NCBI GenBank assembly: GCA_016217665.1
Contig: JACRHF010000025.1
Location: 1 to 41,847 of the forward strand
DNA from: Nitrospirota bacterium
GTDB lineage: Bacteria; Nitrospirota; 9FT-COMBO-42-15; HDB-SIOI813
Reading direction: 5' to 3'
Length of the DNA stretch: 41,847 bases
The translations under genes and the position numbers were made by a program. The notes under the pieces are model-generated. The model saw only the letters and a list, made by a program, of their open reading frames with translations. It made no database searches and had not been told where the DNA came from. Below, in pieces: positions 569 to 24,253 of this stretch (position 1 is the first letter of the stretch; every line of letters begins with the position of its first letter).

Positions 569-576
569 ATAATGAT

Positions 577-2012: not shown

Positions 2013-2053
2013 TTTTCGCTCCGCTCAATGTGCCCCCTTCGGGGCCCACTGCC

Positions 2054-4361: not shown

Positions 4362-4639
4362 CTCCGTGAATGGCTTCTATACCACATAGGAAAATCAAAA
4401 TTTCAGTTTGAATAATAGACCTCACAACTAGTGGCCGTCAAGGAATTATTAAGGGTCTTTCGAGGGTTGTCAGTGGGGGCTATGGGTAAAATTTTCCTAT
4501 TTTGAACCACCGTGTCAGTTTTTCCACCGGCAAAGGGAGTAAACACCCTGTTTTTGGGCACACTGGCCGGGCAGTTGATAAAGACGCTGAATCTGCTTAC
4601 TTCTGCTTATCCTGCATCTACTCGACGTGCGTAGTGTGC

Positions 4640-4667
4640 AAATTCCTAGTGCGAAATTCCTAGTGCG
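4640..4667. repeat. 14-bp tandem duplication
   Basis: AAATTCCTAGTGCG x2 at the left border of the nif island. Confidence 0.8.
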
Positions 4668-4676
4668 GATATCACT

Positions 4677-4715
4677 GCCGAAGGTCTGAATGGCCACAAT
4701 CATCCCCGGAACAGC
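4677..4715 (-). pseudogene. Tiny remnant resembling an IS91-family (Y2) transposase
   Basis: Translates AVPGMIVAIQTFG, like the segment preceding the HUH motif of IS91-like transposases; only 13 codons. Confidence 0.4.
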
Positions 4716-4739
4716 AGTATTATCTTCTATGACGCCTGC

Positions 4740-4853
4740 TTCATCTCTTTGCTCCTCTTCAGTCTCAACCGCCTCGATATATTTGGCCATGGACCAATCT
4801 CCCCCATACTCATCCTGTGTTCATCTGAACCCTGCATATTTCTCAACGACCTT
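4740..4853 (-). pseudogene. Fragment of a TM0106-family RecB-like/RNase H-like nuclease C-terminus (left copy)
   Basis: KVVEKYAGFR*TQDEYGGDWSMAKYIEAVETEE with an in-frame TGA. Confidence 0.55.
4755..4815 (+). repeat. Left direct repeat (61 bp) of the nif island
   Basis: CTCTTCAGTCTCAACCGCCTCGATATATTTGGCCATGGACCAATCTCCCCCATACTCATCC; matches 21216..21275 with 2 substitutions and 1 indel. Confidence 0.95.
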
Positions 4854-5069
4854 CATCTCGCGGACACCGTGGATATGGATGGGGACCGGGGAGAGGTTGA
4901 AGGCCGGAGAGGCGAAATAGGGAGTGGAGACCCCGATCAGATTGGTGCAGAACAGATGGTCATGTCCCATGGCGATGATCTCGGGAGCATGATACGGTAT
5001 GTTACGGCGGTCTTCAAGAGACCGATCGGCCGAGATCTTTTTTCCGAGATCACATGCGGCACACATTAT

Positions 5070-5085
5070 TGTAGCAAACGACACA
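5070..5085. promoter_or_regulatory. NifA-type upstream activator sequence TGT-N10-ACA
   Basis: TGTAGCAAACGACACA about 110 bp upstream of the -24 element. Confidence 0.7.
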
Positions 5086-5192
5086 AATATGTTGTCATCT
5101 TGAGCATGAATGGATGTGGGATAGGGGTACCGTTCCGGACAAATGGTATGTAACACATTGAAAACATGCGGTTTATTCTGCCATCTTCCGAC

Positions 5193-5209
5193 TTGGCACA
5201 CCTTGTGCG
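5193..5209 (+). promoter_or_regulatory. Sigma54 (-24/-12) promoter of the nif operon
   Basis: TTGGCACACCTTGTGCG: GG(5195-6)-N10-GC(5207-8), TGGCAC core intact. Confidence 0.8.
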
Positions 5210-5259
5210 ATATAGAAATATACGTCGCAAGACGATTCCCAAAAGGAGGTGGTCCCGGG

Positions 5260-5457
5260 ATGGCTACCCCCGAGAGTATTTCCGATGCCATTATCGATCT
5301 GATGGAGAAGCAGGGACAGTTGACCCTGACCGAGGTGGAGACGCACCTGGGGGTCTCTTACAACCTCGTAATTCTCGACATCGACCGGATGGTGGAAAGG
5401 CATCTCCTAACTCTCGAGCGGCAGGGGACGGATTATGTCCTCTCCCGGGCGGCATAA
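5260..5457 (+). CDS. Small winged-helix-like protein (65 aa), first gene of the nif transcript
   Basis: Strong RBS AAAGGAGGT before ATG 5260; IIDLMEKQGQLTLTEVETHLGVSYNLV…IDRMVERHLLTLER has a wHTH pattern. Confidence 0.7.
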   Translation: MATPESISDAIIDLMEKQGQLTLTEVETHLGVSYNLVILDIDRMVERHLLTLERQGTDYVLSRAA

Positions 5458-5458
5458 G

Positions 5459-5659
5459 ATGTGTGTATCGATGGTCTGCATGGATTGTAAAGTCAAGGTG
5501 GAACTGGACAGAAAAGGCAGCGCCGGCATCTGCGACGAGCGGATCATCAGCGAGATCGTGGAGAGTATTGGCCAGGTCCATCATGGTTCGGTGGAGATCA
5601 AGATCCAGGATTCCAGGGTGGTCCAGATCGACACGCTGGAGAAGCGGCGGTTGAAGTAG
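5459..5659 (+). CDS. YezD/DUF2292 (OscA-like) small protein
   Basis: EIVESIGQVHHGSVEIKIQDSRVVQIDTLEKRRL is the DUF2292 signature; start codon uncertain. Confidence 0.8.
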   Translation: MCVSMVCMDCKVKVELDRKGSAGICDERIISEIVESIGQVHHGSVEIKIQDSRVVQIDTLEKRRLK

Positions 5660-5670
5660 CGATGGAATAA

Positions 5671-6684
<1,014 letters not shown>

Positions 6685-6719
6685 GGAGTTCATTGGCAGG
6701 CGGACAACAACAAGAGACT

Positions 6720-6760
6720 CACGACCATTGCATTGGCCTTCGGCCGCAATGGGTACCCCG
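6720..6760. repeat. Hairpin repeat in the nifH-nifD spacer, homologous to 38245..38285
   Basis: CACGACCATTGCATTGGCCTTCGGCCGCAATGGGTACCCCG vs CACGACCCGTTGCAATTGCCTTCGGCGCAACGGGTGCCCCG. Confidence 0.7.
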
Positions 6761-6801
6761 GCAATGGGTCATGGGGAGGGAAGTGAGGAAGGGGAGCAGA
6801 A

Positions 6802-8268
6802 ATGGGCTTAGAGACCATCGAGGAACGGAAACAACTCGTTGAAGAAGTGTTATCGGTTTATCCGGAAAAGACCAAAAAGAAACGGGCCAAACACTTGGGG
6901 GTTTTCGATGAATCCCAGATCCAAAAAGGGGAATGTTCGGTCAAGTCCAACATCAAATCGATCCCGGGGGTCATGACCATCCGCGGCTGCGCCTATGCCG
7001 GATCAAAAGGGGTGGTCTGGGGACCCATCAAGGACATGATCCACATCAGCCACGGCCCGGTCGGGTGCGGCCAGTACTCCTGGGCCTCCCGGCGAAATTA
7101 CTACATCGGGATGACGGGGGTGGATACCTTCGTCACGATGCAGTTCACCTCGGATTTCCAAGAGCGGGACATCGTCTTCGGCGGGGACAAGAAGCTGGAG
7201 AAAATCATCGACGAGATCCAGCAGCTCTTCCCCCTGAACAAAGGGATCACGATCCAGTCGGAGTGCCCCATCGGCCTGATCGGGGACGACATCGAGGCCG
7301 TGTCCAAGAAAAAGTCCAAGGAATATAACGGGAAGACGATCGTCCCGGTCCGGTGCGAGGGATTCCGAGGGGTTTCCCAGTCCCTGGGGCACCATATCGC
7401 CAACGATACGATCCGGGATTGGGTCTTCCCGCAGGCCGATCAGCGTGAATTTCAGGGGACCCCTTACGACGTCGCCATCATCGGCGACTACAACATCGGC
7501 GGGGACGCCTGGTCCTCCCGGATCCTTCTGGAGGAGATGGGGCTTCGGGTGGTGGCCCAATGGTCCGGAGATGGGACGCTGAGCGAGCTGATGAACACCC
7601 CGAAGGTGAAGCTCAATATCCTCCATTGCTACCGGTCGATGAACTATATCTCCCGCCACATGGAGGAAAAGTACGGCATCCCCTGGGTGGAATACAACTT
7701 CTTCGGTCCCACCAAGATCGAAGAGTCGCTGCGCAGAATCGCTTCCCACTTCGACGACAGGATCAAGGAAGGGGCGGAGAAGGTCATCGCCAAATACCGC
7801 CCCATGGCGGACCGGGTGATCGAAAGGTACCGACCGCGCCTGGAAGGGAAGACGGTCATGCTCTTCGTCGGCGGCCTCCGCCCGCGCCACGTCATCGGGG
7901 CCTACGAAGACCTCGGCATGAACGTGATCGGAACCGGCTACGAGTTCGGCCACAACGACGACTACCAGCGGACTGCACACTACGTGAAGGAAGGGACCGT
8001 GATCTACGACGACGTCACCGGTTACGAGTTCGAGAAGTTCGTCGAGAAGATGCAGCCCGATCTGGTGGGTTCCGGGATCAAGGAGAAATATGTCTTCCAG
8101 AAGATGGGGGTCCCCTTCCGGCAGATGCACTCGTGGGATTATTCGGGACCTTATCACGGGTACGACGGGTTCGCCGTCTTCGCCAGGGACATGGACATGG
8201 CGATCAACAACCCGGTCTGGAAGATGGCGAAGGCACCGTGGAGGGAAGGGAAAACCGGAATGGAGTAG
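6802..8268 (+). CDS. nifD: Nitrogenase MoFe protein alpha chain (group I length)
   Basis: [24 protein letters not shown], FeMoco ligands in LHCYRSMNY and FRQMHSWDY; 488 aa with no group II insertion. Confidence 0.99.
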
Positions 8269-8290
8269 GTTGGGCGAAGCGAAGCCCAAC
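8265..8290 (+). repeat. GTAG-type REP-like palindrome at the nifD stop
   Basis: GTAG-GTTGGGC-GAAGCGAA-GCCCAAC. Confidence 0.65.
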
Positions 8291-8324
8291 AATATGAAAT
8301 TGTGACGAATCAAACGGGGAGAAC

Positions 8325-9863
8325 ATGAACCAAAACGCAGATCAGATCCTGGATCACGCCAACCTGTTCCGGGAACCGGAATATCTTGAGATGTTCGAGA
8401 AGAAACGGAAGGAATTCGAAAACCCCTGCGACTCGGACGAGATCGAGAAGATCCGGGAATGGACAAAGACCCCTGAATACCGGGAACTGAACTTTCAGCG
8501 GGAGGCCCTCACCGTCAACCCGGCCAAGGCCTGCCAGCCGCTTGGCGCCGTCTTCTGCGCCGTGGGATTCGAGGGGACCCTCCCCTTCGTTCACGGGTCT
8601 CAGGGGTGCGTGGCCTATTACCGGAGCCATCTCAGCCGCCACTTCAAGGAACCCTGCTCCTGCGTCTCTTCTTCAATGACGGAAGACGCGGCGGTGTTCG
8701 GGGGACTCAACAACATGATCGACGGCCTGGCCAACGCCTATGCGCTGTACAAGCCCAAGATGATCCATGTCTCCACCACCTGCATGGCCGAGGTGATCGG
8801 CGATGACCTCAACACCTTTATCAAGAATGCCAAGGCCAAGGGGTCCGTCCCGGAGGAATACGACGTCCCCTTCGCCCACACCCCGGCCTTCGTGGGGTCC
8901 CACATAGTAGGTTATGACAATGCGCTCAAAAGCATCCTCAGTCATTTCTGGGAAGGGAAAGAACGACAGCCGGGAGAGAAAATCAACTTGATCATGGGAT
9001 TCGACGGTTACACCGTGGGGAACATCCGGGAACTGAAGCGGATGCTGAACCTGATGAGTGTAAGCTATACGGTTCTATCGGATAACAGTGATATCTTCGA
9101 TACCCCCACGGACGGACAGTTCCGGATGTATGACGGCGGAACGACGCTTGAGGAGACGAAGAACGCCCTCCATGCAAAGGCCACGATTTCGATGCAGGAG
9201 TTCTGTACGGAAAAGACGCTGGAGTATGCGGCCTCCAAGGGTCAGGAGACGGTGGCCTTAAACCATCCTATCGGAGTTGCCGGAACCGATGAGTTTTTGA
9301 TAGAGGTTTCCCGAATTACAGGAAAGCCGATACCGCAGGAATTAGAAAAGGAGCGGGGCCGGCTGGTGGATGCCATCGCTGACTCTTCGGCCTACCTGCA
9401 CGGGAAGAGGTTCGCTCTTTACGGTGATCCGGACCTGACGCTCGGCCTGACGGCCTTCTTGCTGGAGCTGGGGGCCGAACCGGTCCATTCCCTGGCCACC
9501 AACGGCGGTAAGGAGTGGGAAGCAAAGGTCCAGGCGCTGTTCGACGCTTCTCCCTTTGGAAAGAACGGTCATGTTTATCCGGGGAAAGATCTATGGCATA
9601 TGCGCAGCCTCCTCTTCACGGAGCCGGTCGATTTTCTGATCGGGAATACCTACGGGAAATATCTGGAGCGGGACACGGGGACGCCGCTGATCCGGATCGG
9701 CTTTCCGATCTTCGACCGGCATCACCATCATCGCTATCCCATCATTGGCTATCAGGGGGCGATGAATGTCCTGGTCCGGATCCTGGACAAAGTGTTCGAA
9801 GAGTTGGACCGGAAAAGCAACGTGCCATCCAAGACGGATTACAGTTTTGACATTATTCGGTAA
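8325..9863 (+). CDS. nifK: Nitrogenase MoFe protein beta chain
   Basis: [31 protein letters not shown], long group I N-terminus, FDIIR C-terminus. Confidence 0.99.
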
Positions 9864-9865
9864 TG

Positions 9866-9892
9866 GTAGGGGCGGTTCACCAACACCTCTAC
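9866..9892 (+). repeat. Degenerate GTAG-type REP-like palindrome between nifK and nifE
   Basis: GTAGGGGCGGTTCACCAACACCTCTAC. Confidence 0.55.
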
Positions 9893-9904
9893 GGAGGGCA
9901 AACA

Positions 9905-11278
9905 ATGTTAGCCCGGAAGGTCGCCGAGGTTTTCAACGAACCTGGCTGTGAACATAACAAACAGAAGTCGGAAAAAGACCGGAAGAAGGGATGCACCAGG
10001 TCGGCGAGGCCCGGTGCCGCCGGCGGCGGATGCGCCTTCGATGGGGCCAAGATCGCTCTTCAGCCGATCACCGACGCGGCCCATCTCGTCCACGGCCCGA
10101 TTGCCTGTGAAGGAAATTCTTGGGACAACCGGAGCGCCAAATCTTCGGGACCGCTCTTATACCGGACCGGTTTTACCACAGACATCAACGAAAACGACGT
10201 GATCATGGGGGGAGAAAAGCGCCTCTTCCGGTCGATCCGGGAGGTGATCAGGAAGTACCACCCTCCGGCGATCTTCGTCTATCAGACCTGTGTCACCGCC
10301 TTGATCGGCGACGATATCGAAGCGGTTTGCAAGGCGGCGGCGCGGGAATTCAACAGGCCGATCATCCCTGTGAATGTACCCGGATTCGTCGGGGGAAAGA
10401 ACCTGGGAAACAAGCTGGCTGGGGAGGCGCTGTTCGATTATGTCATCGGGACGATGGAGCCGGAATACACGACCCCGTACGACATCAGCATCATCGGCGA
10501 GTACAACCTCTCCGGGGAGCTCTGGCAGGTCAAGCCCCTTTTCGATCGCCTGGAAATTCGCATCCTCTCCTGCATCACCGGCGATGCCCGCTACCGCGAG
10601 GTCGCCTGGTCGCATCGCGCGAAGGCCGCAATAATGGTCTGCAGCAAGTCGATGATCAATATCGCCCGGAAGATGGAAGAGCGCTATGGGATTCCGTTTT
10701 TCGAGGGATCGTTCTACGGCATCTCCGATATGAGCGATTCGCTGCGGAATATCGCCCGTCTTCTTGTCCGGCAGGGGGCGCCGGAGGGGCTGATCGAAAA
10801 GACCGAAGGGCTGATCGCGGAAGAAGAAGCCCGGGCCTGGACACGCCTGGGAGAGTACAGGGAACGTCTCCAGGGGAAACGGGTACTTCTCATCACCGGC
10901 GGGGTCAAGTCCTGGTCGGTCGTCTCGGCCCTGCAGGAGAGCGGTATGGTCGTGGTGGGGACCAGCGTGAAGAAGAGCACGAAGGAGGACAGAGAACGGA
11001 TCACGGAGCTGATGGGCGAGGATGCCCACATGATCGAGAGCATCACCCCCAAGGAGATGTACTCCATGCTGAAGGATGCGCAGGCGGACATCCTGATGGC
11101 AGGGGGAAGGTCCCAGTTCGTGGCCCTGAAGGCCCGGATGCCCTTTCTCGATATCAACCAGGAGCGCCACCAAGCCTACGCGGGGTATGAGGGGATGGTG
11201 ACGCTGGTGGAAGAGATCGACAAGGCGATCCACAGTCCGATCTGGGAGCAGGTACGGAAGAAAGCGCCGTGGGAATAA
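9905..11278 (+). CDS. nifE: FeMo-cofactor scaffold subunit NifE
   Basis: EPGCEHN, GGCAFDGA, HGPIAC, GGVKSWS; ATG 9905 follows GGAGG. Confidence 0.98.
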   Translation: MLARKVAEVFNEPGCEHNKQKSEKDRKKGCTRSARPGAAGGGCAFDGAKIALQPITDAAHLVHGPIACEGNSWDNRSAKSSGPLLYRTGFTTDINENDVIMGGEKRLFRSIREVIRKYHPPAIFVYQTCVTALIGDDIEAVCKAAAREFNRPIIPVNVPGFVGGKNLGNKLAGEALFDYVIGTMEPEYTTPYDISIIGEYNLSGELWQVKPLFDRLEIRILSCITGDARYREVAWSHRAKAAIMVCSKSMINIARKMEERYGIPFFEGSFYGISDMSDSLRNIARLLVRQGAPEGLIEKTEGLIAEEEARAWTRLGEYRERLQGKRVLLITGGVKSWSVVSALQESGMVVVGTSVKKSTKEDRERITELMGEDAHMIESITPKEMYSMLKDAQADILMAGGRSQFVALKARMPFLDINQERHQAYAGYEGMVTLVEEIDKAIHSPIWEQVRKKAPWE

Positions 11279-11318
11279 TTTGTCTCCCTCCCCCGGCGGA
11301 GCCGTCGAAAGATAACTT

Positions 11319-12656
11319 ATGGCAATCGTCAACACATCCAACAAAGCCTGCACCGTCAACCCCCTGAAGCTGAGTCAACCCATCGGGGCGGCGCTGACCT
11401 TCCTGGGGATCAACCGGTCCATTCCGGTTCTGCATGGTTCCCAAGGGTGCACGTCCTTCGGTCTGGTCCTCTTTGTCCGTCATTTCCGGGAGATGATCCC
11501 GATGCAGACCACGGCCATGAACGAGGCGACCACGATCCTCGGCGGGACGGAAAATATCGAAGAGGCCCTTCTCACGCTTTATAAAAAGGCGTCACCGGAA
11601 ATCATCAGTCTTTGTACGACCGGTCTGACGGAGACGAAGGGGGAGGATATCGCCGGGGCCGTGAAGGAGATCCGGGGCCGTCATCCGGAGTTGAACCAGG
11701 TCGCCATTGTTCCGGTCTCCACTCCGGATTTTGTGGGGGCCTTCCAGGACGGTTGGTCGAAGGCGGTGGCCCGAATCGTGGAAGATCTGGCGGAAGGAGA
11801 GCCCGAAGTCTTTTCCGGCCGGGTCAACGTATTGGCTGGTCCCTCGCTGACCCCGGCCGACGTGGAAGAGATCGGCAGGATCGTCTCCTCATTCAATCTC
11901 CATCCCGTGATCCTCCCGGATCTTTCGGGATCGCTGGACGGCCACGTTCCGGAAGATTTTACCCCCACAAGCCTCGGCGGAACGAAACTCTCCGAAATCC
12001 GCTCGATGGGGATGTCGGAGATCACGCTGGCCATCGGGGAGTCGATGCGGCCCGCGGCCGAGACCCTGGAGAAAAAGTGCGGGGTCCCGTTCGTGGTCTT
12101 CGACCGTCTTACGGGGCTCGAGGCCAGCGACCGGTTTTTGGATCTCCTTCAACATCTGAGCGGGGAAGACGTTCCGCAAAAATATCGAGGACAGCGGAGC
12201 CGCCTGATGGACGCGATGCTGGACGGACACTTCTTTTTCGGAAAGAAGAAGGTGGCCATCGGCGCCGAGCCGGACCTTCTCTTCGCCCTGGCCTCCTTCC
12301 TGTCCGAAATGGGGAGCGATATCGAAGCCGCCGTGACAACCACAGGTTCTACAATTTTGAAAAAGATTCCGGCGGAAGAAGTCCTCATCGGGGATCTGGA
12401 GGATCTGGAAGAACGGGCCGTTGGGTGCGATCTTATGATCACGCATTCCCACGGACGTCAGGCGTCGGAACGGCTGGAGGTCCCGCTTTTCCGCGCCGGC
12501 ATTCCGACGTTTGACCGGCTGGGGACAGCGCATCAATTGAATGTAGGGTATCAGGGAACCATGCGGTTGATTTTCGAGGTGGGAAATATCTTCCTGGGAA
12601 GCAAGAAGGAAAATCACCCGGACACCTGGTCATTGTCAAATGCGGGAAGACTCTGA
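11319..12656 (+). CDS. nifN: FeMo-cofactor scaffold subunit NifN
   Basis: NPLKLSQPIGA, HGSQGCTSF, DAMLDGHF. Confidence 0.98.
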   Translation: MAIVNTSNKACTVNPLKLSQPIGAALTFLGINRSIPVLHGSQGCTSFGLVLFVRHFREMIPMQTTAMNEATTILGGTENIEEALLTLYKKASPEIISLCTTGLTETKGEDIAGAVKEIRGRHPELNQVAIVPVSTPDFVGAFQDGWSKAVARIVEDLAEGEPEVFSGRVNVLAGPSLTPADVEEIGRIVSSFNLHPVILPDLSGSLDGHVPEDFTPTSLGGTKLSEIRSMGMSEITLAIGESMRPAAETLEKKCGVPFVVFDRLTGLEASDRFLDLLQHLSGEDVPQKYRGQRSRLMDAMLDGHFFFGKKKVAIGAEPDLLFALASFLSEMGSDIEAAVTTTGSTILKKIPAEEVLIGDLEDLEERAVGCDLMITHSHGRQASERLEVPLFRAGIPTFDRLGTAHQLNVGYQGTMRLIFEVGNIFLGSKKENHPDTWSLSNAGRL

Positions 12657-12657
12657 A

Positions 12658-13056
12658 ATGAAAGTCGCCTTTGCCACACAGGACCTGGCCACGGCCAACG
12701 CGCATTTCGGCTGGGCCAGACACATTATGGTCTACGAGGTCACGCCGGACGCCTTCACGCACGTGAAGACGTACAATTTCGCCGGTAATCTTCAGGAAGA
12801 CGGGGACGAAGACAAGCTGATCCCCAAGCTGAAGGCCGTTAAGGATTGCGCCATTCTCTACGTGGCGGCCATCGGCGCCTCCGGGGCGGCCCGTGTCGTG
12901 GCCCAGAAGGTCCACCCGCTGAAGGTGAAGGAGTCGGAGCCGATCGTAAAGCTTCTCGAAAAACTCCAGGCGGTGCTCGGCGGGACCCCGCCCCCATGGC
13001 TTCGAAAGGCGATGCAGAAAGGACAGGAACGGGTGTTGGACTTCGAGGAGGACTAA
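12658..13056 (+). CDS. nifX: FeMo-co precursor carrier NifX
   Basis: MKVAFATQD…[16 protein letters not shown]; alternative start at 12640. Confidence 0.95.
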
Positions 13057-13057
13057 C

Positions 13058-13570
13058 ATGGCGATGGAAGAACAAAAAACACCAACGGCAGGTGAGGCAT
13101 CGCTCCGCTCCGCCCAACAAACTCCCGACCCGATGGAGTCGGTTTTCATCAAGGAACTCGTTAAACAGTTCCGGGCCCAGGATGCGCATGGAGCCTGGGA
13201 TAAAAAGTCCGACCGGCAATTGATCGAACCATTGATCGTGGACAAGGAGAAACGGAAGACGATCCCGGTCGTCGGCGATCCCCATCCGGAGGTCTTGTGG
13301 CGGGTGGAGCTTTTTTACAATGCCGTCGGCATGACCATCGAACGACAGACCGGGATCATGGTTTCGCCGATGCTGAAGATGCATCACGAGGGGTTCGGGC
13401 GGATAGTCCTGACCGCCGGAAGACTGATTGTCGTTAACAAGTTCCTGCGGGACATCCACCGGTTCGGTTTCCCGACGATCGAGAAGATGGCGGAAGAAGG
13501 GGAGAAACTGGTAGCCACGGGAGTGGACATGATCGAAAAGTTCCCCGAGGCGGCCCAGCATGGGGAGTGA
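13058..13570 (+). CDS. NifX-associated nitrogen fixation protein (DUF269)
   Basis: [25 protein letters not shown]. Confidence 0.92.
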
Positions 13571-13591
13571 TTCATAGAAGGCGAGGTGAAC

Positions 13592-15109
13592 ATGGAACTG
13601 CCGATTCTGAACAATGCAAGCGCTCCGGACCCTACGGCGGGATGCAAGGCCAGGGGGAGTTGCGGCGACAGCCGCGACCCCGGGGATATGAACCCGGAGA
13701 CCTGGGAGAAGGTCAAGAACCACCCCTGCTACAGTGAGGAGGCCCATCACCACTACGCCCGGATGCACGTGGCCGTGGCGCCGGCCTGCAACATCCAGTG
13801 CCATTACTGCAACCGCAAGTACGATTGTGCCAATGAGAGCCGGCCCGGGGTGGTCAGCGAGCGGTTGACTCCTGAAGATGTGGTCAAGAAGGTTTTGGCC
13901 GTGGCCAGCGCCATCCCCCAGATGACGGTCATGGGAATTGCGGGCCCCGGAGATCCCCTGGCCAATCCCGACAAAACCTTCCGCACCTTCGAGCTGATCG
14001 CGGAGAAGGCCCCGGATATCAAGCTCTGTCTCTCCACCAATGGCCTGGCCCTCCCGGATTACGTGGACCGGATCAAGGCCCTGAATGTTGACCATGTGAC
14101 AATCACCATCAACATGATCGATCCGGAAGTAGGGGAGAGGATATATCCCTGGGTCTTTTACAAGCATAAGCGGTGGAAGGGGCGGGAGGCCTCCAGGATC
14201 TTAAGCGAGCGCCAGTTAGAGGGGCTTGACCTGCTTATGGCCAACGGCATCCTCTGCAAGGTGAACTCGGTGATGATCCCGGGGGTGAATGACGAACATC
14301 TGGTGGAGGTGAACAAGAAGGTCAAGTCGTTGGGGGCCTTCCTCCACAACATCATGCCGCTGGTCTCCGCTCCGGAACACGGAACCTATTACGGACTCAA
14401 CGGCCAGCGGGGACCGACCGCCAGGGAACTCAAGGCGTTGCAGGACAAGTGCGAAGTCCGGATGAATATGATGCGCCATTGCCGCCAGTGCCGGGCCGAC
14501 GCGGTGGGACTCCTCGGGGAAGACCGGAGTCATGAGTTTACTCTGGAAAAGATCCACGAGATGGACGTGGAATACGATCTCGAAAAGCGCCGGGCCTATC
14601 AGTTGGAGGTGGAGGCAAAGCGGCTGGAGACCCGCGCGACCAGGGAAGAGGGGCTGAAGGCAATGAAGGACGTTCAGACTGACCTGAAGATCCTCATCGC
14701 CATCGCCACGAAGGGCGAAGGGAAGGTCAACGAGCACTTCGGTCACGCCCGGGAGTTCCAAATCTACGAGGTCAGCCGCAAAGGGTGCAAGTTCGTCGGC
14801 CATCGCCGCGTGGATATGTATTGCCAGGGGGGTTGGGGAGAAGAGGACACCCTGGACACGGTGATCAAGGCGATCGTCGATTGCACGGCGGTCTTTGTCT
14901 CCAAGGTTGGGCGTTGTCCGCGGAAAACCCTCCATGCCGCCGGGATCGAACCGGTCGATCAGTACGCGTTCGATTTCATCGAAAAGTCGGCGCTGACCTA
15001 CTTCAAGGAATATGCGGAGAAGGTCCGGAAGGGAGAGATCGTCCATCAGGATCGGGGGGAGGCCTCGATCCGGACAGGGGCGATAGTTCCGGTTCCAATG
15101 GGAGGCTGA
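13592..15109 (+). CDS. nifB: Radical SAM NifB with C-terminal NifX-like domain
   Basis: [34 protein letters not shown]-terminal VNEHFGHA. Confidence 0.99.
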
Positions 15110-15196
15110 ACCTTAGTCCTGATCCCGGACACGCGGAGACGAAGGAAGAACTGAAGGCCAAGAGAGAATGTCTTCATGCCCTGGAGGGAAGAAGTG

Positions 15197-15463
15197 ATGC
15201 GCAAGGAGGATGTCGTCGAGTTGGAGGACCCTCCCCGTTTCGATTACGGGGTGAAGGTCTGTTCCCGGAAGGTGATCCGAAACGACGGGACATTTCCCGG
15301 CCGTCAGGTGGGTGATGTCTTAGTCGATAAAGGGGAAGTCGGATACGTCGCAAGCATCGGAACCTTCCTTCAGCAGTTCTACATTTACGGGGTCTATTTC
15401 CAGGAAAGAGGTTATTTCGTGGGGTGCAGGGCCAAGGAACTGGATCCGGTGGACGAGGAATGA
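15197..15463 (+). CDS. nifZ: NifZ
   Basis: IRNDGTFPG…GYVASIGTFLQ…VGCRAKEL. Confidence 0.95.
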   Translation: MRKEDVVELEDPPRFDYGVKVCSRKVIRNDGTFPGRQVGDVLVDKGEVGYVASIGTFLQQFYIYGVYFQERGYFVGCRAKELDPVDEE

Positions 15464-15467
15464 GGTT

Positions 15468-15785
15468 ATGAGCGATCTCTGGGGGCGGTTCGATAAACTG
15501 GTGAACGCGGAAGACTTTCTCGACTTTTTCGAGATCCCATACGATTCCTGGGTGGTCGATGTCAACCGGCTTCATGTTCTGAAGAAGTTTTCCCTCTACA
15601 AACAAGAAATCGACCGGGAGGATTCCGGGATGACATCCGAGGAGCGATTTGCCCGTTACCGGGAGGCTATGCGGAAGGCCTACGAGACCTTTCTCACCTC
15701 GACGGCCCCGGAGCAGCGGCTCTTCAAGGTCTTTCAGCAGACTCCACTGGGACTGGTGACGATCGGGATCTCCCGAAAGGTGTGA
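15468..15785 (+). CDS. nifW: NifW
   Basis: AEDFLDFFEIPYD…VNRLHVLKKF…LFKVFQ. Confidence 0.93.
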   Translation: MSDLWGRFDKLVNAEDFLDFFEIPYDSWVVDVNRLHVLKKFSLYKQEIDREDSGMTSEERFARYREAMRKAYETFLTSTAPEQRLFKVFQQTPLGLVTIGISRKV

Positions 15786-15819
15786 TTTGAGTAGAGGTTT
15801 GGGCAATGGAGGAGGTAAT

Positions 15820-16029
15820 GTGAAAGTCATGATCCGTAAAAATTCAGAGGGGGTCTTCTCGGTTTATGTGGCCAAGAAGGACCTGGAGGAGCCGATCGTG
15901 GCGATGGAAAAGGACGACCTCTGGGGCGGGATGGTGACGCTGGCGAACGGCTGGCGTCTGGAACTCCCGGCTATGGCGCCGGACACGCGGCTTCCCATCA
16001 CGGTGGAGGTCCGGCGTGTGGCTGAGTGA
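15820..16029 (+). CDS. nifT: NifT/FixU
   Basis: MKVMIRK…YVAKKDLEE…WGG…LANGW…LPITV; GTG start after GGAGG. Confidence 0.93.
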   Translation: MKVMIRKNSEGVFSVYVAKKDLEEPIVAMEKDDLWGGMVTLANGWRLELPAMAPDTRLPITVEVRRVAE

Positions 16030-16050
16030 TAGTGATAAGGAGTGTATGAG

Positions 16051-16365
16051 ATGAGCGCTGTGGAAGTGGTCACCGGAATCACACAAGGCGGCAAGGTCTG
16101 GTTCCCGCAATTCGTCCAGAGCATCGATACCTCGAAGTGTATCGGTTGTGGCCGGTGCTTCAGGGTCTGCGGCCGTGATGTGATGCGGCTGGTGGCTGTG
16201 GACGAGGACGGGACGTTGATTGAGATCGAAGATGAGGACGAGGAGTGCGAAAAGAAGGTGATGACCCTGCCCCATCCGGAGAACTGCATCGGGTGCGAGG
16301 CCTGTTTCCGGGTCTGCCCGAAACAATGCTACACCCACGGCCCCGTGCCGGCCGCGGGAACCTGA
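16051..16365 (+). CDS. fdxB: nif-specific 2[4Fe-4S] ferredoxin III
   Basis: [11 protein letters not shown] and [12 protein letters not shown] with an acidic spacer. Confidence 0.92.
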
Positions 16366-16386
16366 GGAGAAGTGGAGGAGAATCGG

Positions 16387-16704
16387 ATGAAGATGGTACG
16401 AGCCATTATCCGCCCGGAGAAAGAGCAGGAGGTGGTCCTGGCCCTGGAGGGGGCCGGATTCCCTGCTGTCACCAAGTCCCATGTCTTCGGGCGGGGCAAA
16501 CAGAAGGGACTTCAGGTGGGGATCGTTCATTATGATGAGCTTCCCAAGCTGGTCCTCATGATGGTGGTGGAGGATCGAGATGTGGAAAGGGTGGTCCAGT
16601 TGATTTTAAAAACGGCCCATACGGGCAGCATCGGTGATGGGAAAATCTTTGTGAGCCCCATCGAGCAGGCCTACACTATCAGGACCGGGAAACAGGAGTT
16701 GTGA
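16387..16704 (+). CDS. nifI1: P-II family nitrogen regulator, NifI1-like
   Basis: RAIIRPEK…FGRGKQKG…YDELPK…GDGKIFVSP; short T-loop. Confidence 0.85.
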   Translation: MKMVRAIIRPEKEQEVVLALEGAGFPAVTKSHVFGRGKQKGLQVGIVHYDELPKLVLMMVVEDRDVERVVQLILKTAHTGSIGDGKIFVSPIEQAYTIRTGKQEL

Positions 16705-16706
16705 CA

Positions 16707-17126
16707 ATGAAAGAGATCATCGCGATTATTCGCCGGGACAAGCTCCCTGCAACCAAGAAAGCCCTGGATGGAATCGGCTGTTCGGGCATGACGATCTACA
16801 GTGTGGAAGGGCGGGGAAAGCAAAAAGGGAGGCTTTCAGAGATTGACCCGGAGATTCCGGAGCATTACGAAGGTGTTTCACGGATTATGATTCGACCGAC
16901 CCCTTCGGTCTATGCCCTGGGGCATCAGATCACCAAACCGGTCCTATATGTCCCCAAGCGGATGCTTCGGATCGTTGTCCCGGATGACCGAGTCAGCCTG
17001 GTGATCGATACCCTGATCCGGGTCAATCAGACAGGAGTCCACGGGGACGGCAAGATCTTTGTGGCCCCGGTGGAGGAGACCTGGCAGATTCGGACGTCAC
17101 AATCCGGAGAGGAGATACTGCAATGA
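16707..17126 (+). CDS. nifI2: P-II family nitrogen regulator, NifI2-like (long T-loop)
   Basis: MKEIIAIIR…TKKAL…GRGKQKG…PKRML…NQTG…GDGKIFV. Confidence 0.85.
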   Translation: MKEIIAIIRRDKLPATKKALDGIGCSGMTIYSVEGRGKQKGRLSEIDPEIPEHYEGVSRIMIRPTPSVYALGHQITKPVLYVPKRMLRIVVPDDRVSLVIDTLIRVNQTGVHGDGKIFVAPVEETWQIRTSQSGEEILQ

Positions 17127-17338
17127 CAGAGACAATCACTCTCGATGAATTGAAGGCCCGGGTGAAGCGCCTCAGCTCCGAGGCGGGACGGTTGAAAATG
17201 GACCTGCATGACTTGGCCGAGGATCTGCCCAACGGATGGGAGAAAATTATGGAGGTGGCCCAGAGGACTTACCAGAAGTATGCTGAGCTGATGGCGGCAA
17301 GGCAACGACTGGTGAAGATGGAAAAGGCAGGCGGATGA
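17123..17338 (+). CDS. CCE_0567/Rop-like nif-associated protein (DUF683)
   Basis: KMDLHDLAEDLPNGW. Confidence 0.88.
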   Translation: MTETITLDELKARVKRLSSEAGRLKMDLHDLAEDLPNGWEKIMEVAQRTYQKYAELMAARQRLVKMEKAGG

Positions 17339-17589
17339 TTGAATGGGTGGAGAAGATAATTGAGGTCCTGGATGAGATCCGCCCCGATCTGATCGCGGAG
17401 GGTGGAGATGTCAGGCTGGCCGGTCTCGAAGAAGGGGTGGTCTATGTACGCATGGTGGGTCCGTTCACGGCATGGTGTCAGACCAAGCGCAGGGTGCTGA
17501 GGGACGTTGAACGGGTTTTGAAAGCAAGGGTTCCCTGGATTGAACGGATCGAGGCTGTCTGTCCGCCGCCGGGATCTCAGGCTCAATGA
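17335..17589 (+). CDS. NifU C-terminal (Nfu)-like domain protein with a degenerate CxxC
   Basis: VLDEIRPDLIAEGGDV…VYVRMVG; GPFTAWC replaces the usual GACxxC. Confidence 0.8.
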   Translation: MIEWVEKIIEVLDEIRPDLIAEGGDVRLAGLEEGVVYVRMVGPFTAWCQTKRRVLRDVERVLKARVPWIERIEAVCPPPGSQAQ

Positions 17590-17598
17590 GGGTTTGTG

Positions 17599-18354
17599 AT
17601 GAATTCCGTAGCGGTTCGATATTTTGGCCACTCCTGTTTCGAGGTGACCTCGCAGGAAGGAGTTCGCTTGCTGATCGATCCGCATATAACGGGGAACCCT
17701 GCTTCTCCCCTGGGGCTGGAGGAGCTGGATCCGCCCGACCTGATCCTGGTGACCCATGCGGCCCCGGATCACCTGGGAGACACATTGGAGATTGTCAGAC
17801 AATCCGGGTGCCGCGTTTTCTGCGATCCTGCGGTGGATTATTACCTGAAGAGCCGAAAGATACCCCCGGTCCAAGTGCAACGGATGGTCTGGGGATTCCA
17901 TGTGCCGTTTCGGGGGATTCGGATCCGGGCAGTGGAGAGCCGGCACCACTCCACTCTCCGGTGGGATGGCCCGCCGGTGACCGGGATACCCCTGGGATTT
18001 ATGATCACCCTGGAATCGGGTCAGACCCTCTATCATGCTGGCGACACCTCTATTTTTGGCGACCTGAGGCTCTTTGGCGAGATCTACCGGCCAGAGGTGG
18101 CATTCCTTCCGGTGGGGAACTATCCTGGCTCCCATGCCGAGCTTTCCCCGGAGGAGGCGGCCCTGGCAGCGGCTTGGCTGGGAGTGAAGTGGGCCATCCC
18201 GATGCATTATGAGAAGGGATCAGATGCACCCTATCGTTTTGTGAATCAAGTGGCACACAAAGCACCGGGGGTCCAGGTGGTGTTGATAGAACCTGGAGAG
18301 CAGGTGATGATCGGGAGCGACCTGAAGCAGCATGAGGTGAGGATCGCAAGATGA
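17599..18354 (+). CDS. Metallo-beta-lactamase-fold hydrolase (UPF0173/UlaG-like)
   Basis: GHSCF, LIDP, THAAPDH, YHAGDT, IPMHY. Confidence 0.88.
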   Translation: MNSVAVRYFGHSCFEVTSQEGVRLLIDPHITGNPASPLGLEELDPPDLILVTHAAPDHLGDTLEIVRQSGCRVFCDPAVDYYLKSRKIPPVQVQRMVWGFHVPFRGIRIRAVESRHHSTLRWDGPPVTGIPLGFMITLESGQTLYHAGDTSIFGDLRLFGEIYRPEVAFLPVGNYPGSHAELSPEEAALAAAWLGVKWAIPMHYEKGSDAPYRFVNQVAHKAPGVQVVLIEPGEQVMIGSDLKQHEVRIAR

Positions 18355-19517
18355 TCAGAAAAGTATTTATCGACGATACCACACTCCGGGATGGGGAACA
18401 GGCCGCTGAAGTTTCCTTCACCCTGGAAGAGAAGCTTCAGATCGCCCGGATGCTGGATGAAATCGGGGTGGACCAGATTGAGGCCGGGACTCCAGCCATG
18501 GGAGGAGAAGAGCAAGAGGCCATCCGGGCCATTGCGGCGTCAGGGCTCCGGGCAGGCGTACTGGCCTGGTGCCGGGCGACCCAGTCGGATATTGACGCGG
18601 CACTGGCCTGTGGGGTGAAAGGGGTGAACATCTCCCTTCCGGTTTCTGACATCCATATCCAGCATAAACTCCAAAAGACACGTGCTTGGGTGCTGGCACA
18701 ACTGCGGTGGGCCCTTTCCTATGCCAAACGGCACGGCCTCTATGTCTCGGTGGGCGCGGAGGATGCCTCTCGGGCCGACAGGAGATTTCTCGCCCTGTAT
18801 GGGCGGATAGCTGCCGATCATGGGGCTGACCGGTTACGCTATTGTGACACAGTCGGCGTTCTGGATCCCTTTACAACCTATGAGGCTATCCGTGCTCTGA
18901 AGGAGCAGGTTGGGATCTCCCTTGAGATTCATACCCACAACGACTTCGGCCTGGCGACGGCCAATGCCCTGGCGGCGGTGAAGGCAGGAGCCAGCTATGT
19001 GAATACCACTATCAACGGTCTTGGCGAGCGGGCTGGCAATGCTGCCCTGGAAGAGGTTGTGATGGCCCTTGAGCATCTCGATGGGATTTCCCGTCTTGTA
19101 AAAACGGAAGGGCTGGTCTCCCTTTGCCAAGAGGTGGCTCGAGCTTCTGGTTCCCCCATTCCTCCCTGGAAGGCCATTATAGGCCGCAATGCTTTCGCCC
19201 ACGAGTCTGGCATCCACGTGGACGGACTTCTGAAAGCCCGGCAGACCTATGAGGCTTTTGATCCGAAAGATCTGGGGTTGAACCACCGGATTGTGATCGG
19301 GAAACACTCGGGGACCCACGCCGTCCGGTTCTATTTCGCCCGGCTGGGGATCTTCCTGACCGAGGCGGAATCCCGGGCCCTGCTGGAGCCGATCCGGCGA
19401 CTGGCCTCGCTCCGGAAACGTTCTCTCTCCGCGGATGAGCTGCGGGGAATTTACGAAGGGGTTCCGGGGACTTCGAGCAAAAGCGAAGGAGGAAACCTGC
19501 ATTGGAAGATCTCCTGA
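18351..19517 (+). CDS. nifV: Homocitrate synthase
   Basis: DTTLRDGEQ, HTHNDFGLATAN, GLGERAGN, HESGIHVDG, GKHSG. Confidence 0.95.
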   Translation: MIRKVFIDDTTLRDGEQAAEVSFTLEEKLQIARMLDEIGVDQIEAGTPAMGGEEQEAIRAIAASGLRAGVLAWCRATQSDIDAALACGVKGVNISLPVSDIHIQHKLQKTRAWVLAQLRWALSYAKRHGLYVSVGAEDASRADRRFLALYGRIAADHGADRLRYCDTVGVLDPFTTYEAIRALKEQVGISLEIHTHNDFGLATANALAAVKAGASYVNTTINGLGERAGNAALEEVVMALEHLDGISRLVKTEGLVSLCQEVARASGSPIPPWKAIIGRNAFAHESGIHVDGLLKARQTYEAFDPKDLGLNHRIVIGKHSGTHAVRFYFARLGIFLTEAESRALLEPIRRLASLRKRSLSADELRGIYEGVPGTSSKSEGGNLHWKIS

Positions 19518-20290
19518 TCGATCGAGCGTCGTCCGCCAAATCAGTCCTCCTTTCGGACCCCGGCCATTCCCGGTATCGGCGGCAGCTTCTGTTGAAAGGG
19601 ATCGGCCCGGAAGGGCAGGAGAAGCTCCGGCGGGCCACCGTGCTGGTGGCGGGGGTCGGGGGGCTCGGCGGCGCCGTTGCTCTCTATCTGGCGGCGGGTG
19701 TGGGCAGACTCGTTCTCGTCCATGCCGGGCCGATCGACCTGCCTGACCTCAACCGTCAGATCCTGATGACAGACGCGGGGATCGGCCGGAGCAGGGTACA
19801 TGTCGCCCGCGAGACCCTCCATCGGTTCAATCCGGAGGTCCGTGTGGACGTGGTGGATGATCGATCGCACGAAGGGAATATCAGCGATCTCCTCCAGGAG
19901 GCCGACCTATCGGTCAGTTGCCGCTACAACTTCGAAGAACGGGATCTCCTTAACAGGGCCTCGGTCACTTCCGGAAAGCCGGTGGTGGAGGCAGCCATGT
20001 ACGGGATGGAGTTCTATCTGACGACCTTGATTCCAGGCGCAACTCCTTGTTTGCGATGCATCTACCCGGAGTTTCCCTCCTGGGACCCGTTGGGGTTCCC
20101 GGTCCTCGGGGCGGTCTCCGGAACCCTGGGCTGCCTGGCAGCGGCCGAAGCGGTTAAACTCATCACCGGAATGGGTCAACCTCTTCGAGGCACGCTCCTT
20201 TACGGGGATCTCTCGGACATGACCTTCCGGAAGTTCCGGGTCAAAAGGCAACCCGGCTGTTTCGTGTGCGGAGACGGTGATGGAATATGA
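19502..20290 (+). CDS. hesA: HesA/MoeB/ThiF family adenylyltransferase
   Basis: RYRRQ, GVGGLG, DLNRQILM, PCLRC, C-terminal CFVC; located in a nif cluster. Confidence 0.85.
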   Translation: MEDLLIDRASSAKSVLLSDPGHSRYRRQLLLKGIGPEGQEKLRRATVLVAGVGGLGGAVALYLAAGVGRLVLVHAGPIDLPDLNRQILMTDAGIGRSRVHVARETLHRFNPEVRVDVVDDRSHEGNISDLLQEADLSVSCRYNFEERDLLNRASVTSGKPVVEAAMYGMEFYLTTLIPGATPCLRCIYPEFPSWDPLGFPVLGAVSGTLGCLAAAEAVKLITGMGQPLRGTLLYGDLSDMTFRKFRVKRQPGCFVCGDGDGI

Positions 20291-21035
20291 TCTTCCGGTT
20301 TTTCTCATTCTGATGGTGTTTCTGATCGCGGCCCTCTATTCCTCCGTAGGGCATGGTGGGGCGTCCGGTTATCTGGCCGTCCTGGTGCTCGCCGGATTCG
20401 CCCGGTCAGAGATCACTCCCGTCGTGTTGGTCCTCAATATCATAGTTGCGGCCACGGGATGGCTCCAGTATTCCCGTGCCGGCCATTTCGCTCCGCGATT
20501 GCTCCTGCCGTTCGTCATGACCTCTATCCCGGGCTCCTTCATCGGGGGGATGATCTCCGTGAATGAGACGGTTTGCGCCGTCATCCTGGGCGTCGCCCTC
20601 CTGGCAGCGGCCTTCCGCTTCCTGCTCCTCCCTTATCCGGCGTCCGTCCGGACCTCGCTGGCGACGGGACCGCTGTGGGGCCTCGCTCTGCCGGTCGGCC
20701 TGTCGCTTGGAATCCTCGCCGGGATGGCGGGCATCGGCGGCGGAGTCTTCTTGAGCCCCCTCCTTCTCCTGGTGGGGTGGGCCGACGCCAAAAAGACCGC
20801 AGCGGTCTCGGCGGCCTTCATTGTCCTCAATTCCGCAAGCAGTCTGCTGGCCCATTTTATCAAGGGAACCCCCTTCCATGAAAATCTATGGATCCCCATG
20901 GGGATCGCTGTTCTACTGGGAGGGAGATGGGGTTCCCACATGGGGGCCAACCGAATTCCGGCCCTCCGGCTCCAGCAGATTCTAGGTTCCGTCCTCCTGC
21001 TAGCCGCGATTAAACTCCTCTTTTCTTTTCAGTAA
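20280..21035 (+). CDS. TSUP (TauE/SafE) family membrane transporter
   Basis: SSVGHGGASGY, GIGGGVFLSP, multiple TM helices. Confidence 0.9.
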   Translation: MEYDLPVFLILMVFLIAALYSSVGHGGASGYLAVLVLAGFARSEITPVVLVLNIIVAATGWLQYSRAGHFAPRLLLPFVMTSIPGSFIGGMISVNETVCAVILGVALLAAAFRFLLLPYPASVRTSLATGPLWGLALPVGLSLGILAGMAGIGGGVFLSPLLLLVGWADAKKTAAVSAAFIVLNSASSLLAHFIKGTPFHENLWIPMGIAVLLGGRWGSHMGANRIPALRLQQILGSVLLLAAIKLLFSFQ

Positions 21036-21137
21036 TCATAACCGGGGCGATGCGTTTCTCTGACCTGGACGGGCCGGACACGCCGGGACCCGACCGGGCG
21101 GAACGAAACCCAGCCGACTTGCGTGCCGCGACGTATC

Positions 21138-21275
21138 AAGCACCTTCCATGTTGCCTTCAAATCTTCCTCATTGTATTTTATGATCTCACCGATCAACTC
21201 CCGCCTTTTTGTCTTCTCTTCAGTCTCGACCGCCTCGATATGTTTGGCCATGGACCAATCTCCCCCTACTCATCC
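21138..21275 (-). pseudogene. Fragment of a TM0106-family nuclease C-terminus (right copy)
   Basis: GGDWSMAKHIEAVETEEKTKRRELIGEIIKYNEEDLKATWKVL (YNxxD motif). Confidence 0.6.
21216..21275 (+). repeat. Right direct repeat (60 bp) of the nif island
   Basis: Near-identical to 4755..4815. Confidence 0.95.
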
Positions 21276-21536
21276 GCAAAAGGGGTGGGTAAACCATGGT
21301 CTGACTACGATATCTTAATCGTACTGAATAAGCGGGACAATAAAATTATTGATGAGATTTATGAGATTGTCACAGAATTCCAGTTGGAGCAGAGGGTTGA
21401 CATTTCGTTAAAGATATACAGGAAGGATGATTTTGAGATGAAGAATGCACTGCATACTCCATTCATGGAGCGTATTAAAAAAACAGGAGTCGTTCTTTGG
21501 ACCCGGTCAGAGCAGAACTTATCAAAGGCCAGATAA
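21276..21536 (+). pseudogene. 5'-truncated minimal nucleotidyltransferase (MNT antitoxin)
   Basis: AKGVGKPWSDYDILIV…F…IKKTGVVL; the N-terminus up to the GS motif is replaced by the direct repeat. Confidence 0.75.
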
Positions 21537-21653
21537 AGAAGGCAGAAGAAAAATTGGCCGCGGCCAAATCTCTGCGTGAGGATGGCTTCCAGGACGACGC
21601 TATATCAAGGGCCTATTATGTCATGTTTCATGCCGGAAGTGCGGCACTCCTTT
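21497..21653 (+). pseudogene. 3'-truncated HEPN-domain protein
   Basis: KAEEKLAAAKSL…DDAISRAYYVMFHAGSAALL, then the frame runs antisense into iscX. Confidence 0.75.
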
Positions 21654-21875: not shown

Positions 21876-21882
21876 TGCGGCA

Positions 21883-22224: not shown

Positions 22225-22244
22225 GTCTCATGCCTATCGAATCC

Positions 22245-22598: not shown

Positions 22599-22617
22599 AT
22601 TTTCCCCTCCTTACTGA

Positions 22618-23004: not shown

Positions 23005-23020
23005 ATTTAAACACCTCCCT

Positions 23021-24238: not shown

Positions 24239-24253
24239 TTCCTCCTTTTTTGC

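Follow-up and report, generated by a model that had tools for sequence, protein, structure and literature searches.

A horizontally acquired, apparently anchored nif island with a legible scar of its insertion in a groundwater Nitrospirota genome

Nitrogen-fixation and symbiosis genes can be carried by integrase-borne islands, such as the Mesorhizobium symbiosis integrative and conjugative element (ICE) at a tRNA gene, and these islands, like the cyanobacterial nifD and fdxN elements, are bounded by direct repeats and can in principle excise as circles, using dedicated site-specific recombinases and short attachment (att) cores at tRNA genes or in nif genes. The nitrogen-fixation island (NFI) of Pseudomonas stutzeri is of a different kind: according to the available part of the source, it is an 'anchored' genomic island in which a complete nif cluster of deviant GC content lies between core genes, with no integrase or transposase and with short direct or inverted flanking repeats, and it is regarded as no longer mobilisable (PMC4174501). 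Here, we describe a nif cluster on contig C111 (41,847 nucleotides (nt), analysed whole and hereafter called the window) of a Nitrospirota metagenome-assembled genome (MAG; code G000; 115 contigs, 1.71 Mb, 77% complete), which is bracketed by a direct repeat formed from two overlapping remnants of one nuclease gene. We class it as a nif island that was gained by horizontal transfer, is anchored today and bears a scar from which its integration can be read unusually well; no new mobility mechanism is claimed for it. The P. stutzeri NFI is the nearest described case, and the likeness, as far as the accessible text of that source goes, lies in a nif block of deviant GC, the lack of mobility genes and the short flanking repeats. 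However, the repeats at the present locus belong to two stubs of a protein-coding gene that overlap and are permuted, the block measures ~16 kb, whereas the P. stutzeri island is said to be ~49 kb, and the host is an uncultured groundwater lineage in which the 10 other sampled genomes of the family have no NifD match. From the Mesorhizobium ICE and the nifD/fdxN elements, the locus differs in that there is no recombinase or tRNA gene and the repeats are gene stubs. The case matters because it shows legibly how an entire nitrogenase cluster was transferred laterally to a lineage in which the sampled relatives have none, with four junctions resolved within a few bases and with stubs of what would be the target gene recording the topology of integration; the event may be used to study how nif genes spread without dedicated mobility genes, and it could be dated against a sibling population in the same groundwater.

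A repeat search of the window found a gapless direct pair of 54 nt (4752-4805 and 21213-21266, spacing 16461) with 51 of 54 positions identical, for which the number expected by chance in 41.8 kb is ~2e-18. Gapped local alignment extended the pair to a full direct repeat of 71 bp, with a left copy at 4745-4815 and a right copy at 21205-21275; the copies are separated by four substitutions and two single-base indels (6/71 positions), and the longest perfect run that they have in common is 24 bp. An earlier sequence-only reading of the window, made without database searches, had given the copies as 4755-4815 and 21216-21275 with two substitutions and one indel, and this is exactly what those intervals contain. 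It had also proposed that the repeat be counted in the genome, and the count is two in the MAG and zero in 40 relatives searched, so the repeat is not a dispersed element. Because the copies differ at six positions in 71 bp, they have been decaying for some time.

The repeat is the 20-codon overlap between two stubs, A and B, of one nuclease gene family. When the full-length TM0106-family nuclease P0003 (486 aa) was used as a tblastn query, its residues 421-457 fell on window positions 4856..4746 of the minus strand (E 1e-11) and its residues 438-481 on 21266..21135 of the same strand (E 2.5e-16), and an HMMER-based search agreed with the placing of both. Stub A (4746-4856, minus strand; E 1e-11 to 3e-15 with P0003, P0002 and P0014) spans codons ~421-457 with an in-frame TGA at 4821-4823, and stub B (21135-21275, minus strand; E 2.5e-16 to 3e-20) spans codons ~438-481 with a 1-base deletion near 21267 and without the last ~5 codons. 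The 54 residues read from 21266..21105 matched 103 homologues at E <= 0.01 among 115 candidates in a protein collection; these are mostly ~486 aa long with PF12705 (PD-(D/E)XK) and PF13482 (RNase H-like), and several are named TM0106 family RecB-like putative nuclease. P0003 scored 209.5 bits against TIGR03491 (cut-off 97.45), stub B matched positions 433-460 of this profile at E 9e-4 with 18.3 bits, below that same cut-off of 97.45, and stub A gave no TIGR03491 match. Over the residues present, the stubs are significantly similar to genuine members of the TM0106 family of RecB-like putative nucleases (TIGR03491; PF12705 plus PF13482). Both stubs and the closest homologue, P0002 (86%), read SMAK where the other six homologues read SIAK, and for this reason the two stubs derive from one gene lineage. 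They are relics and contain no complete nuclease: only codons ~421-481 of ~486 remain, in two pieces, with one stop and one frameshift. P0002 is itself internally deleted (162 aa, with ~50 N-terminal and ~110 C-terminal residues, on a 3-kb contig), which suggests that this nuclease gene is degenerating in at least two related genomes.

Along the strand of the nuclease gene, the order is stub B, insert, stub A; the pieces have the same orientation and are permuted. The sequence-only reading had already seen that the inner flanks of both repeat copies encode one protein, with the upstream part at the left and the downstream part at the right, and the tblastn alignments and minus-strand translations agree. 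Its description needs amending in two respects. The left inner flank is nuclease for only 41 bp and is then a truncated draT, and, while a circle formed by recombination between the copies would indeed carry codons ~421-481 contiguously, what would be rejoined is no gene but a relic, 60 codons out of ~486, which one stop and one frameshift interrupt.

The left end of the imported DNA is a 5' fragment of draT (4857-4970, minus strand, 38 codons), which was recognised by Pfam DRAT, tblastn, N-terminal comparison and third-position GC (GC3). It matches positions 1-30 of 256 of the DRAT profile (PF07357; E 6.6e-4, 19.4 bits, under the cut-off of 25) and the full-length DraT of genome G023 (tblastn E 1.5e-8), a protein that scores 233.8 bits on PF07357; comparison with the N-termini of six DraT genes leads to the same identification. 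In G023, draT adjoins a DUF2292-nifH unit and is followed by draG, and the fragment is therefore part of the imported block; DraT is rare in the phylum sample (6/301 genomes at E <= 1e-20). The draT frame reads directly into nuclease codon ~422 at 4856/4857. A weak Pfam DRAT match to a 156-aa open reading frame (ORF) had made the whole left inner flank a candidate DraT, and this was ruled out, since comparison with full-length nucleases and tblastn assign the last 11 codons before the stop to the nuclease, and DraT ends at 4857. The right end of the imported DNA is a GC-rich spacer recognised by its composition (21036-21134, 99 bp, 68.7% GC), which runs from the TauE stop to nuclease codon 481. 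The spacer does not resemble the sequence that follows TauE in G230, the genome with the nearest nif cluster, and at the ends of the imported block neither direct nor inverted repeats exceed the level of shuffled sequence.

The composition of the cluster is foreign to the host. Of the 516 windows of 5 kb in the MAG, which has an overall GC content of 50.6%, the five richest in GC are all from the cluster (0.566-0.592), and the tetranucleotide distance of the cluster is in the top ~1%. In 40-codon blocks, GC3 is 0.74 +/- 0.10 for island genes and 0.61 +/- 0.09 for native genes. The draT fragment, at 0.76, is like the nif genes, while stub A (0.51) and stub B (0.59) are host-like, and for this reason the compositional borders are the inner junctions at 4856/4857 and 21134/21135 rather than the repeats. 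A compositional profile across the borders, also proposed by the sequence-only reading, thus does reveal foreign DNA, but the shift lies at the inner junctions and not at the repeats. The distribution of the cluster is patchy: among the 11 family genomes (five of them >=90% complete), NifD was found only in G000 and in 0/10 others, and it is present in 106/301 sampled genomes of the phylum. In the nearest cluster, that of G230, NifD is 91% identical and the gene order from DUF2292 to TauE is the same, with no nuclease beside it. Given the deviant composition and the patchy distribution, the nif cluster is foreign and counts as a horizontally acquired genomic island in the broad sense.

Four clean, illegitimate junctions delimit the pieces: J1 at 4751/4752, J2 at 4856/4857, J3 at 21134/21135 and J4 at 21275/21276. 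To the left of J1 lies an internal fragment of an IS91-family Y2 transposase (4667-4751, minus strand, ~85 bp, ~28 codons), which was recognised by DNA similarity, being 84% identical to a broken IS91-like gene on another contig of the same MAG (C42; Pfam Y2_Tnp and Zn_Tnp_IS91) and 76% identical to a sequence in another genome (G009:C67). The fragment corresponds to a central stretch of the N-terminal portion of the protein and is not an intact Y2 transposase, and bases 4745-4751 at this junction fit both the fragment and the repeat. To the right of J4 lies a toxin-antitoxin relic identified by Pfam (21276-21653, plus strand), composed of an MNT nucleotidyltransferase gene without ~38 N-terminal codons (Polbeta profile positions 31-93 of 93) and then a 3'-truncated HEPN gene (profile positions 5-45 of 117). 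Intact MNT homologues (114-126 aa, up to 96% identity) begin to match exactly at 21276, ~38 codons in. The sequence-only reading had called the outer flanks an IS91-like remnant and a beheaded MNT gene, and it was right on both counts, as the similarity to C42 with the Pfam matches and the comparison with intact MNT genes show. The IS91-family fragment directly abuts the left repeat, and IS91-like elements mobilise adjacent DNA by rolling-circle transposition, as stated in the available part of one source (PMC8386438), so an IS91/ISCR-type event may be considered in which the nif block was moved by rolling-circle transposition and the fragment is a remnant of the driver. We consider this very improbable, as only ~85 bp from the middle of the gene are present, both ends are illegitimate junctions with no element end identified, and the closest relatives are debris of the host family (G000:C42 and G009:C67), so that the fragment looks native.

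The joins themselves were assessed with Logan contigs from four runs of one study, one of which (X1) may be the source sample; such assemblies drop rare variants. Two contigs of X1 made by a second assembler (records 3284-5717 and 15870-21314) between them cross all four junctions, and one contig of another sample (X2, record 4536-5101) spans J1 and J2, in each case without a mismatch. The join is not an assembly artefact, and a word-based mis-join is implausible because the copies share no exact run of more than 24 nt. Since all four runs come from one study, the bridging supports the assembly and not independent occurrence. Contig depth was 118 on the near left flank (3284-5717) and 128 on the island, and with contig depth being a crude measure, these like values do not point to the same strain also occurring abundantly without the island. 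The sequence-only reading had itself raised the doubt that the join could be artificial, a doubt that the contigs bridging both borders dispel. The corresponding explanation, in which assembly or binning mis-joined the nif block of another organism or of a plasmid at the repeats, could appeal to a MAG of 115 contigs at 77% completeness and to a close sibling population with the same flanks. Nevertheless, its probability is close to negligible, because the 24-bp run is below the usual assembly word sizes, the second assembler spans all four junctions and the second sample the left two, near flank and island have like depth, and the outer flanks are core chromosomal genes.

To explain this topology, we favour, with our confidence evenly poised, a history in which the DNA was inserted into a resident nuclease gene, ~180 bp of this target were duplicated and the copies were then eroded from the outside. 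A foreign block of 16.3 kb (4857-21134), running from the truncated draT to the GC-rich spacer after TauE, would have entered a TM0106-family nuclease gene situated between a hypothetical gene and the isc operon, at a variable site rich in debris. Its entry would have doubled ~180 bp of the target (codons ~422-481), leaving one copy on each side of the insert, either through a single crossover of the Campbell type with a circle carrying a piece of the gene or through ends that joined in a staggered manner or on sister chromosomes. Later deletions from the outside may have cut into both copies: the left one would have lost its 3' tail and become fused to the IS91 fragment, and the right one would have lost its first ~437 codons and become fused head-to-head to the beheaded MNT gene. 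What remained would be stubs of ~36-37 and 44 codons overlapping by 71 bp, and the island would now be anchored and passively inherited. The order of the pieces, their four junctions, the deviant composition and the patchy occurrence are observed; we infer that the nuclease gene was resident, how long the original duplication was and in which order the events took place.

Several lines of evidence speak for the resident-gene insertion. The shift in composition falls on J2 and J3 and not on the repeats. At J4, the MNT gene lacks the 5' end that nearly identical, intact MNT genes possess, and a truncation exactly at the repeat border fits deletion from the outside. In a Campbell-type single crossover, as with suicide plasmids, the insert comes to lie between two directly repeated copies of an internal segment of the target, one on the 5' side of the gene and the other on its 3' side, which is the order seen here. 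The stubs share one strand, A next to draT and B on the side of TauE, and so have the arrangement that insertion-duplication produces, but no circular form, plasmid backbone or replication gene was found, the outer parts of both gene copies are deleted and 71 bp of homology are left. A simple insertion that duplicated the repeat alone is excluded, because the outer flanks would then continue the nuclease gene. In addition, incoming DNA is known to duplicate a target interval: the available part of a report on Streptococcus pneumoniae transformation describes interchromatid integration at insertion sequence (IS) repeats through homologous pairing, giving duplications of 100-900 kb (PMC3784515). 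As far as that text goes, the likeness lies in ends of incoming DNA that pair at different positions and so duplicate the interval between them, whereas the joints in our window are illegitimate and the interval is ~180 bp.

The following points weigh against this history. Neither the rest of the MAG nor the other 10 genomes of the family yielded a copy of the nuclease gene; among 41 genomes searched for the TM0106 nuclease, matches occurred in G000 and otherwise only as one distant match of 27%, and the 54-aa stub query had no match in 300 other genomes of the phylum. The GC3 argument draws on 37 and 44 codons of a Lys/Glu/Ile-rich peptide. A target duplication of ~180 bp is far longer than those of the transposase type, and no bacterial precedent for an illegitimate version of such a duplication could be pointed to. 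In G001, the only genome of the same genus, the contigs end on both sides, at window positions 3499 and 21871, and leave no readable empty site. The history also needs three events, one insertion and two deletions.

A circular permutation of the nif block plus a 180-bp piece is topologically the same as a duplication, and three histories fit. The second is that a linear copy of a circular or concatemeric molecule, one unit plus 71 bp long, was inserted illegitimately between the MNT gene and the IS91 debris, deleting the MNT 5' end; the nif block would have been closed by a 180-bp nuclease piece from an earlier host, the stubs would have arrived with the island, and the extra length would come from rolling-circle copying or from staggered opening of the circle. 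This terminally redundant copy would give the same topology and both outer junctions in one event, and it accords with the absence of nuclease matches in the host family genomes searched, with the MNT gene cut exactly at the border and with bases 4745-4751 suiting the IS91 fragment and the repeat alike. On the other hand, the circle would have to be a chimera in which the nuclease piece resembles the host and not the island in GC3, and no such circle, plasmid or relative was found among 80 nuclease loci, on plasmids or in a metagenome scan. There was no nif gene within 10 kb of TM0106-nuclease loci (0/80, the best 80 of 95 relatives among species-representative genomes), megablast against plasmids gave no close match (nifHD only, <=81%, 13% of the query covered), nuclease homologues on plasmids were <=27% identical, and a TauE query against JGI metagenomes returned four distant loci at 25-43% identity. 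Furthermore, a terminal redundancy of 0.4% has no obvious mechanism, and the 6/71 differences demand that the copies diverged later. We therefore hold the terminally redundant copy to be unlikely, though still a serious candidate.

The third history spells out the circle integration that the sequence-only reading had proposed: a 16.5-kb circle carrying nuclease codons ~421-481 would have been integrated by host homologous recombination at a pre-existing 71-bp relic of the same gene between the truncated MNT gene and the IS91 fragment. This would account for homology that ends at exactly 71 bp, and circular intermediates of ISCR/IS91-type and IS26-type elements are reported, in the part of the source that is available, to insert at a resident copy and to leave direct repeats round the cargo (PMC8386438). 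As far as that source describes them, these systems resemble the locus in the direct repeats round a cargo and in the IS91-family fragment at the border; however, the shared sequence in the window is a nuclease fragment and not an insertion sequence, and the IS91 piece is an internal scrap outside the repeat. Integration of a circle into such a relic is quite improbable in our view. It presupposes the earlier, independent arrival and double truncation of the same rare gene at this very spot as well as a chimeric circle, at least four events in all, 71 bp at 92% identity with a longest perfect run of 24 bp is a poor substrate for recombination, and near left flank and island are at like contig depth (118 and 128). 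The proposal of an integrated circular cassette of ~16.5 kb was correct in its geometry, but it shares its topology with the two other histories. No chromosomal relic of 71 bp is needed to obtain this arrangement, which can also result from insertion-duplication in a resident gene and later erosion, and with host-like GC3 the stubs are as likely to be duplicated target as to have been borne on a circle. Both circle histories also need a chimeric circle, which itself presupposes an insertion of this kind, and this is a further reason to prefer insertion into a resident gene.

There is no sign of remaining mobility. A Pfam scan of the 59 ORFs of the window found no integrase, recombinase, relaxase or transposase gene, the ~85-bp IS91 scrap being the only mobility-related sequence, and the statement of the sequence-only reading that no integrase is present is thereby borne out. 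ARAGORN found no tRNA or tmRNA in the window, and Rfam gave no match at the gathering score, with just one meaningless sub-threshold match near the left border. With no recombinase and no tRNA, tmRNA or known att site, the locus is not an integrase-mobilised island of the ICE, integrative and mobilisable element (IME) or prophage-like class. The minimal length for efficient RecA-dependent exchange is ~25 bp, and loss of the island by recombination would be rare and inefficient today, because the perfect run between the copies is just 24 bp. No circle or empty-site joint occurred among the 15 joints listed of 30 in the contigs of the four runs, which is no argument against rare excision. The earlier suggestion that the cassette could still be lost by homologous recombination would, given this short run, apply to rare events at most. 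A more far-reaching idea sees in the 16.46-kb unit a minimal nif cassette without a recombinase of its own, which even now passes back and forth between circular and integrated forms through host homologous recombination alone, with the short gene fragment as a handle. This is decidedly improbable; if it were true, nitrogen fixation would be gained and lost as one unit within the aquifer population, and a co-occurring sibling population with the same flanks and apparently no island would be the island-free state.

Evidence for such a sibling population comes from the public runs. In X1, contig depths added up over the farther flanks (3000-3663 and beyond ~21300) come to ~2x the value for the island. 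Positions 21324, 21482 and 21504 have variant letters, which are carried in X1 by a second contig with about half of the total depth there, in X2 by all contigs and in X3 by all or most, and an intact MNT of 121 aa with 96% identity comes from assemblies of public runs. A sibling population thus seems to have the same flanks and an intact MNT gene and, judged by depth, to be without the island. As a separate observation, two loci of G001 (L024 and L025), compared with window positions 1-3499 and 21871-24679, form a mosaic of 67-100% identity per 100-nt bin, with runs of 200-300 nt at 100%; this suggests recombination between co-occurring populations or a consensus assembly of mixed strains.

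The nif cluster itself is intact (5803-21035, plus strand), as judged from Pfam and from synteny with G230. It comprises nifH, D, K, E, N and X, DUF269, nifB, nifZ, nifW, nifT, a ferredoxin gene, two P-II (nifI-like) genes, Rop-like and NifU-C-like genes, a gene for an MBL-fold protein, nifV, ThiF and TauE. The genes nifH, D, K, E, N and B have full-length Pfam matches and open frames, as do nifV, X, Z, W and T, and by its predicted gene content the cluster qualifies as a complete Mo-nitrogenase (nif) gene cluster. Ahead of nifH (5260-5659, plus strand) are a small ORF with a weak HTH_DeoR match (5260-5457) and a DUF2292 gene (5435-5659; Pfam E 8e-13), and DUF2292 homologues also lie upstream of nifH in G230 and G023. 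A minus-strand ORF of 136 aa at 5291-5701 was rejected as a gene and is spurious, being antisense to the DUF2292 gene with a GC3 of 0.41. A putative sigma-54-like -24/-12 element (5194-5209, plus strand; pattern match with two mismatches) precedes these small ORFs; such pattern matches are no more frequent in the window than by chance, and position is the sole argument for this one. No nifA was seen in the island, and an NtrC-type sigma-54 activator and a histidine kinase of the host (707-1939) are encoded 3 kb to the left. The imported cluster is without the nifS-like and iscA-like genes that are found between nifB and nifT in G230 (L054, 8920-11534).

Two further observations concern nif clusters and NifD in the phylum. 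The nif cluster of G230 is bracketed by direct repeats of ~185 bp with 86% identity (L053 18160-18360 and L054 ~19010-19200; G230:C8) and a tRNA-3'-end-like start, and the right copy is followed by a DDE-type transposase-like ORF. These repeats were rejected as an att pair, since they belong to a dispersed element with 12 matches in G230 and have no Rfam or ARAGORN match. Many NifD matches were found in the phylum (e.g., L036 and L038-L047), and most of those with 84-86% identity were reported with one internal TGA, which may be read-through of the stop of a shorter NifD or a real in-frame TGA.

On the left outer flank, a dispersed repeat of ~190 bp (4386-4574), recognised by similarity and belonging to the host family, forms part of the native debris. 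It has matches in 9/10 other family genomes and on two further contigs of the MAG (G000:C38 and G000:C104), often with several copies per genome (loci L010-L015 and L073), and it has no coding frame. A search gave no Rfam match and no unusual fold for it, and the repeat could represent either a miniature element or one end of an insertion sequence. On the right, the native isc operon (iscR, S, U and A, fdx and iscX; 21654-24703, minus strand; Pfam) is present in 8/10 other family genomes. The island lies ~0.6 kb from this iscRSUA-fdx-iscX operon, which may be coincidence or may reflect Fe-S supply from the neighbouring operon. Farther along the window, two perfect palindromes stand between genes, at 28045-28121 with arms of 30 nt and at 34611-34664 with arms of 26 nt, and both are probably bidirectional terminators.

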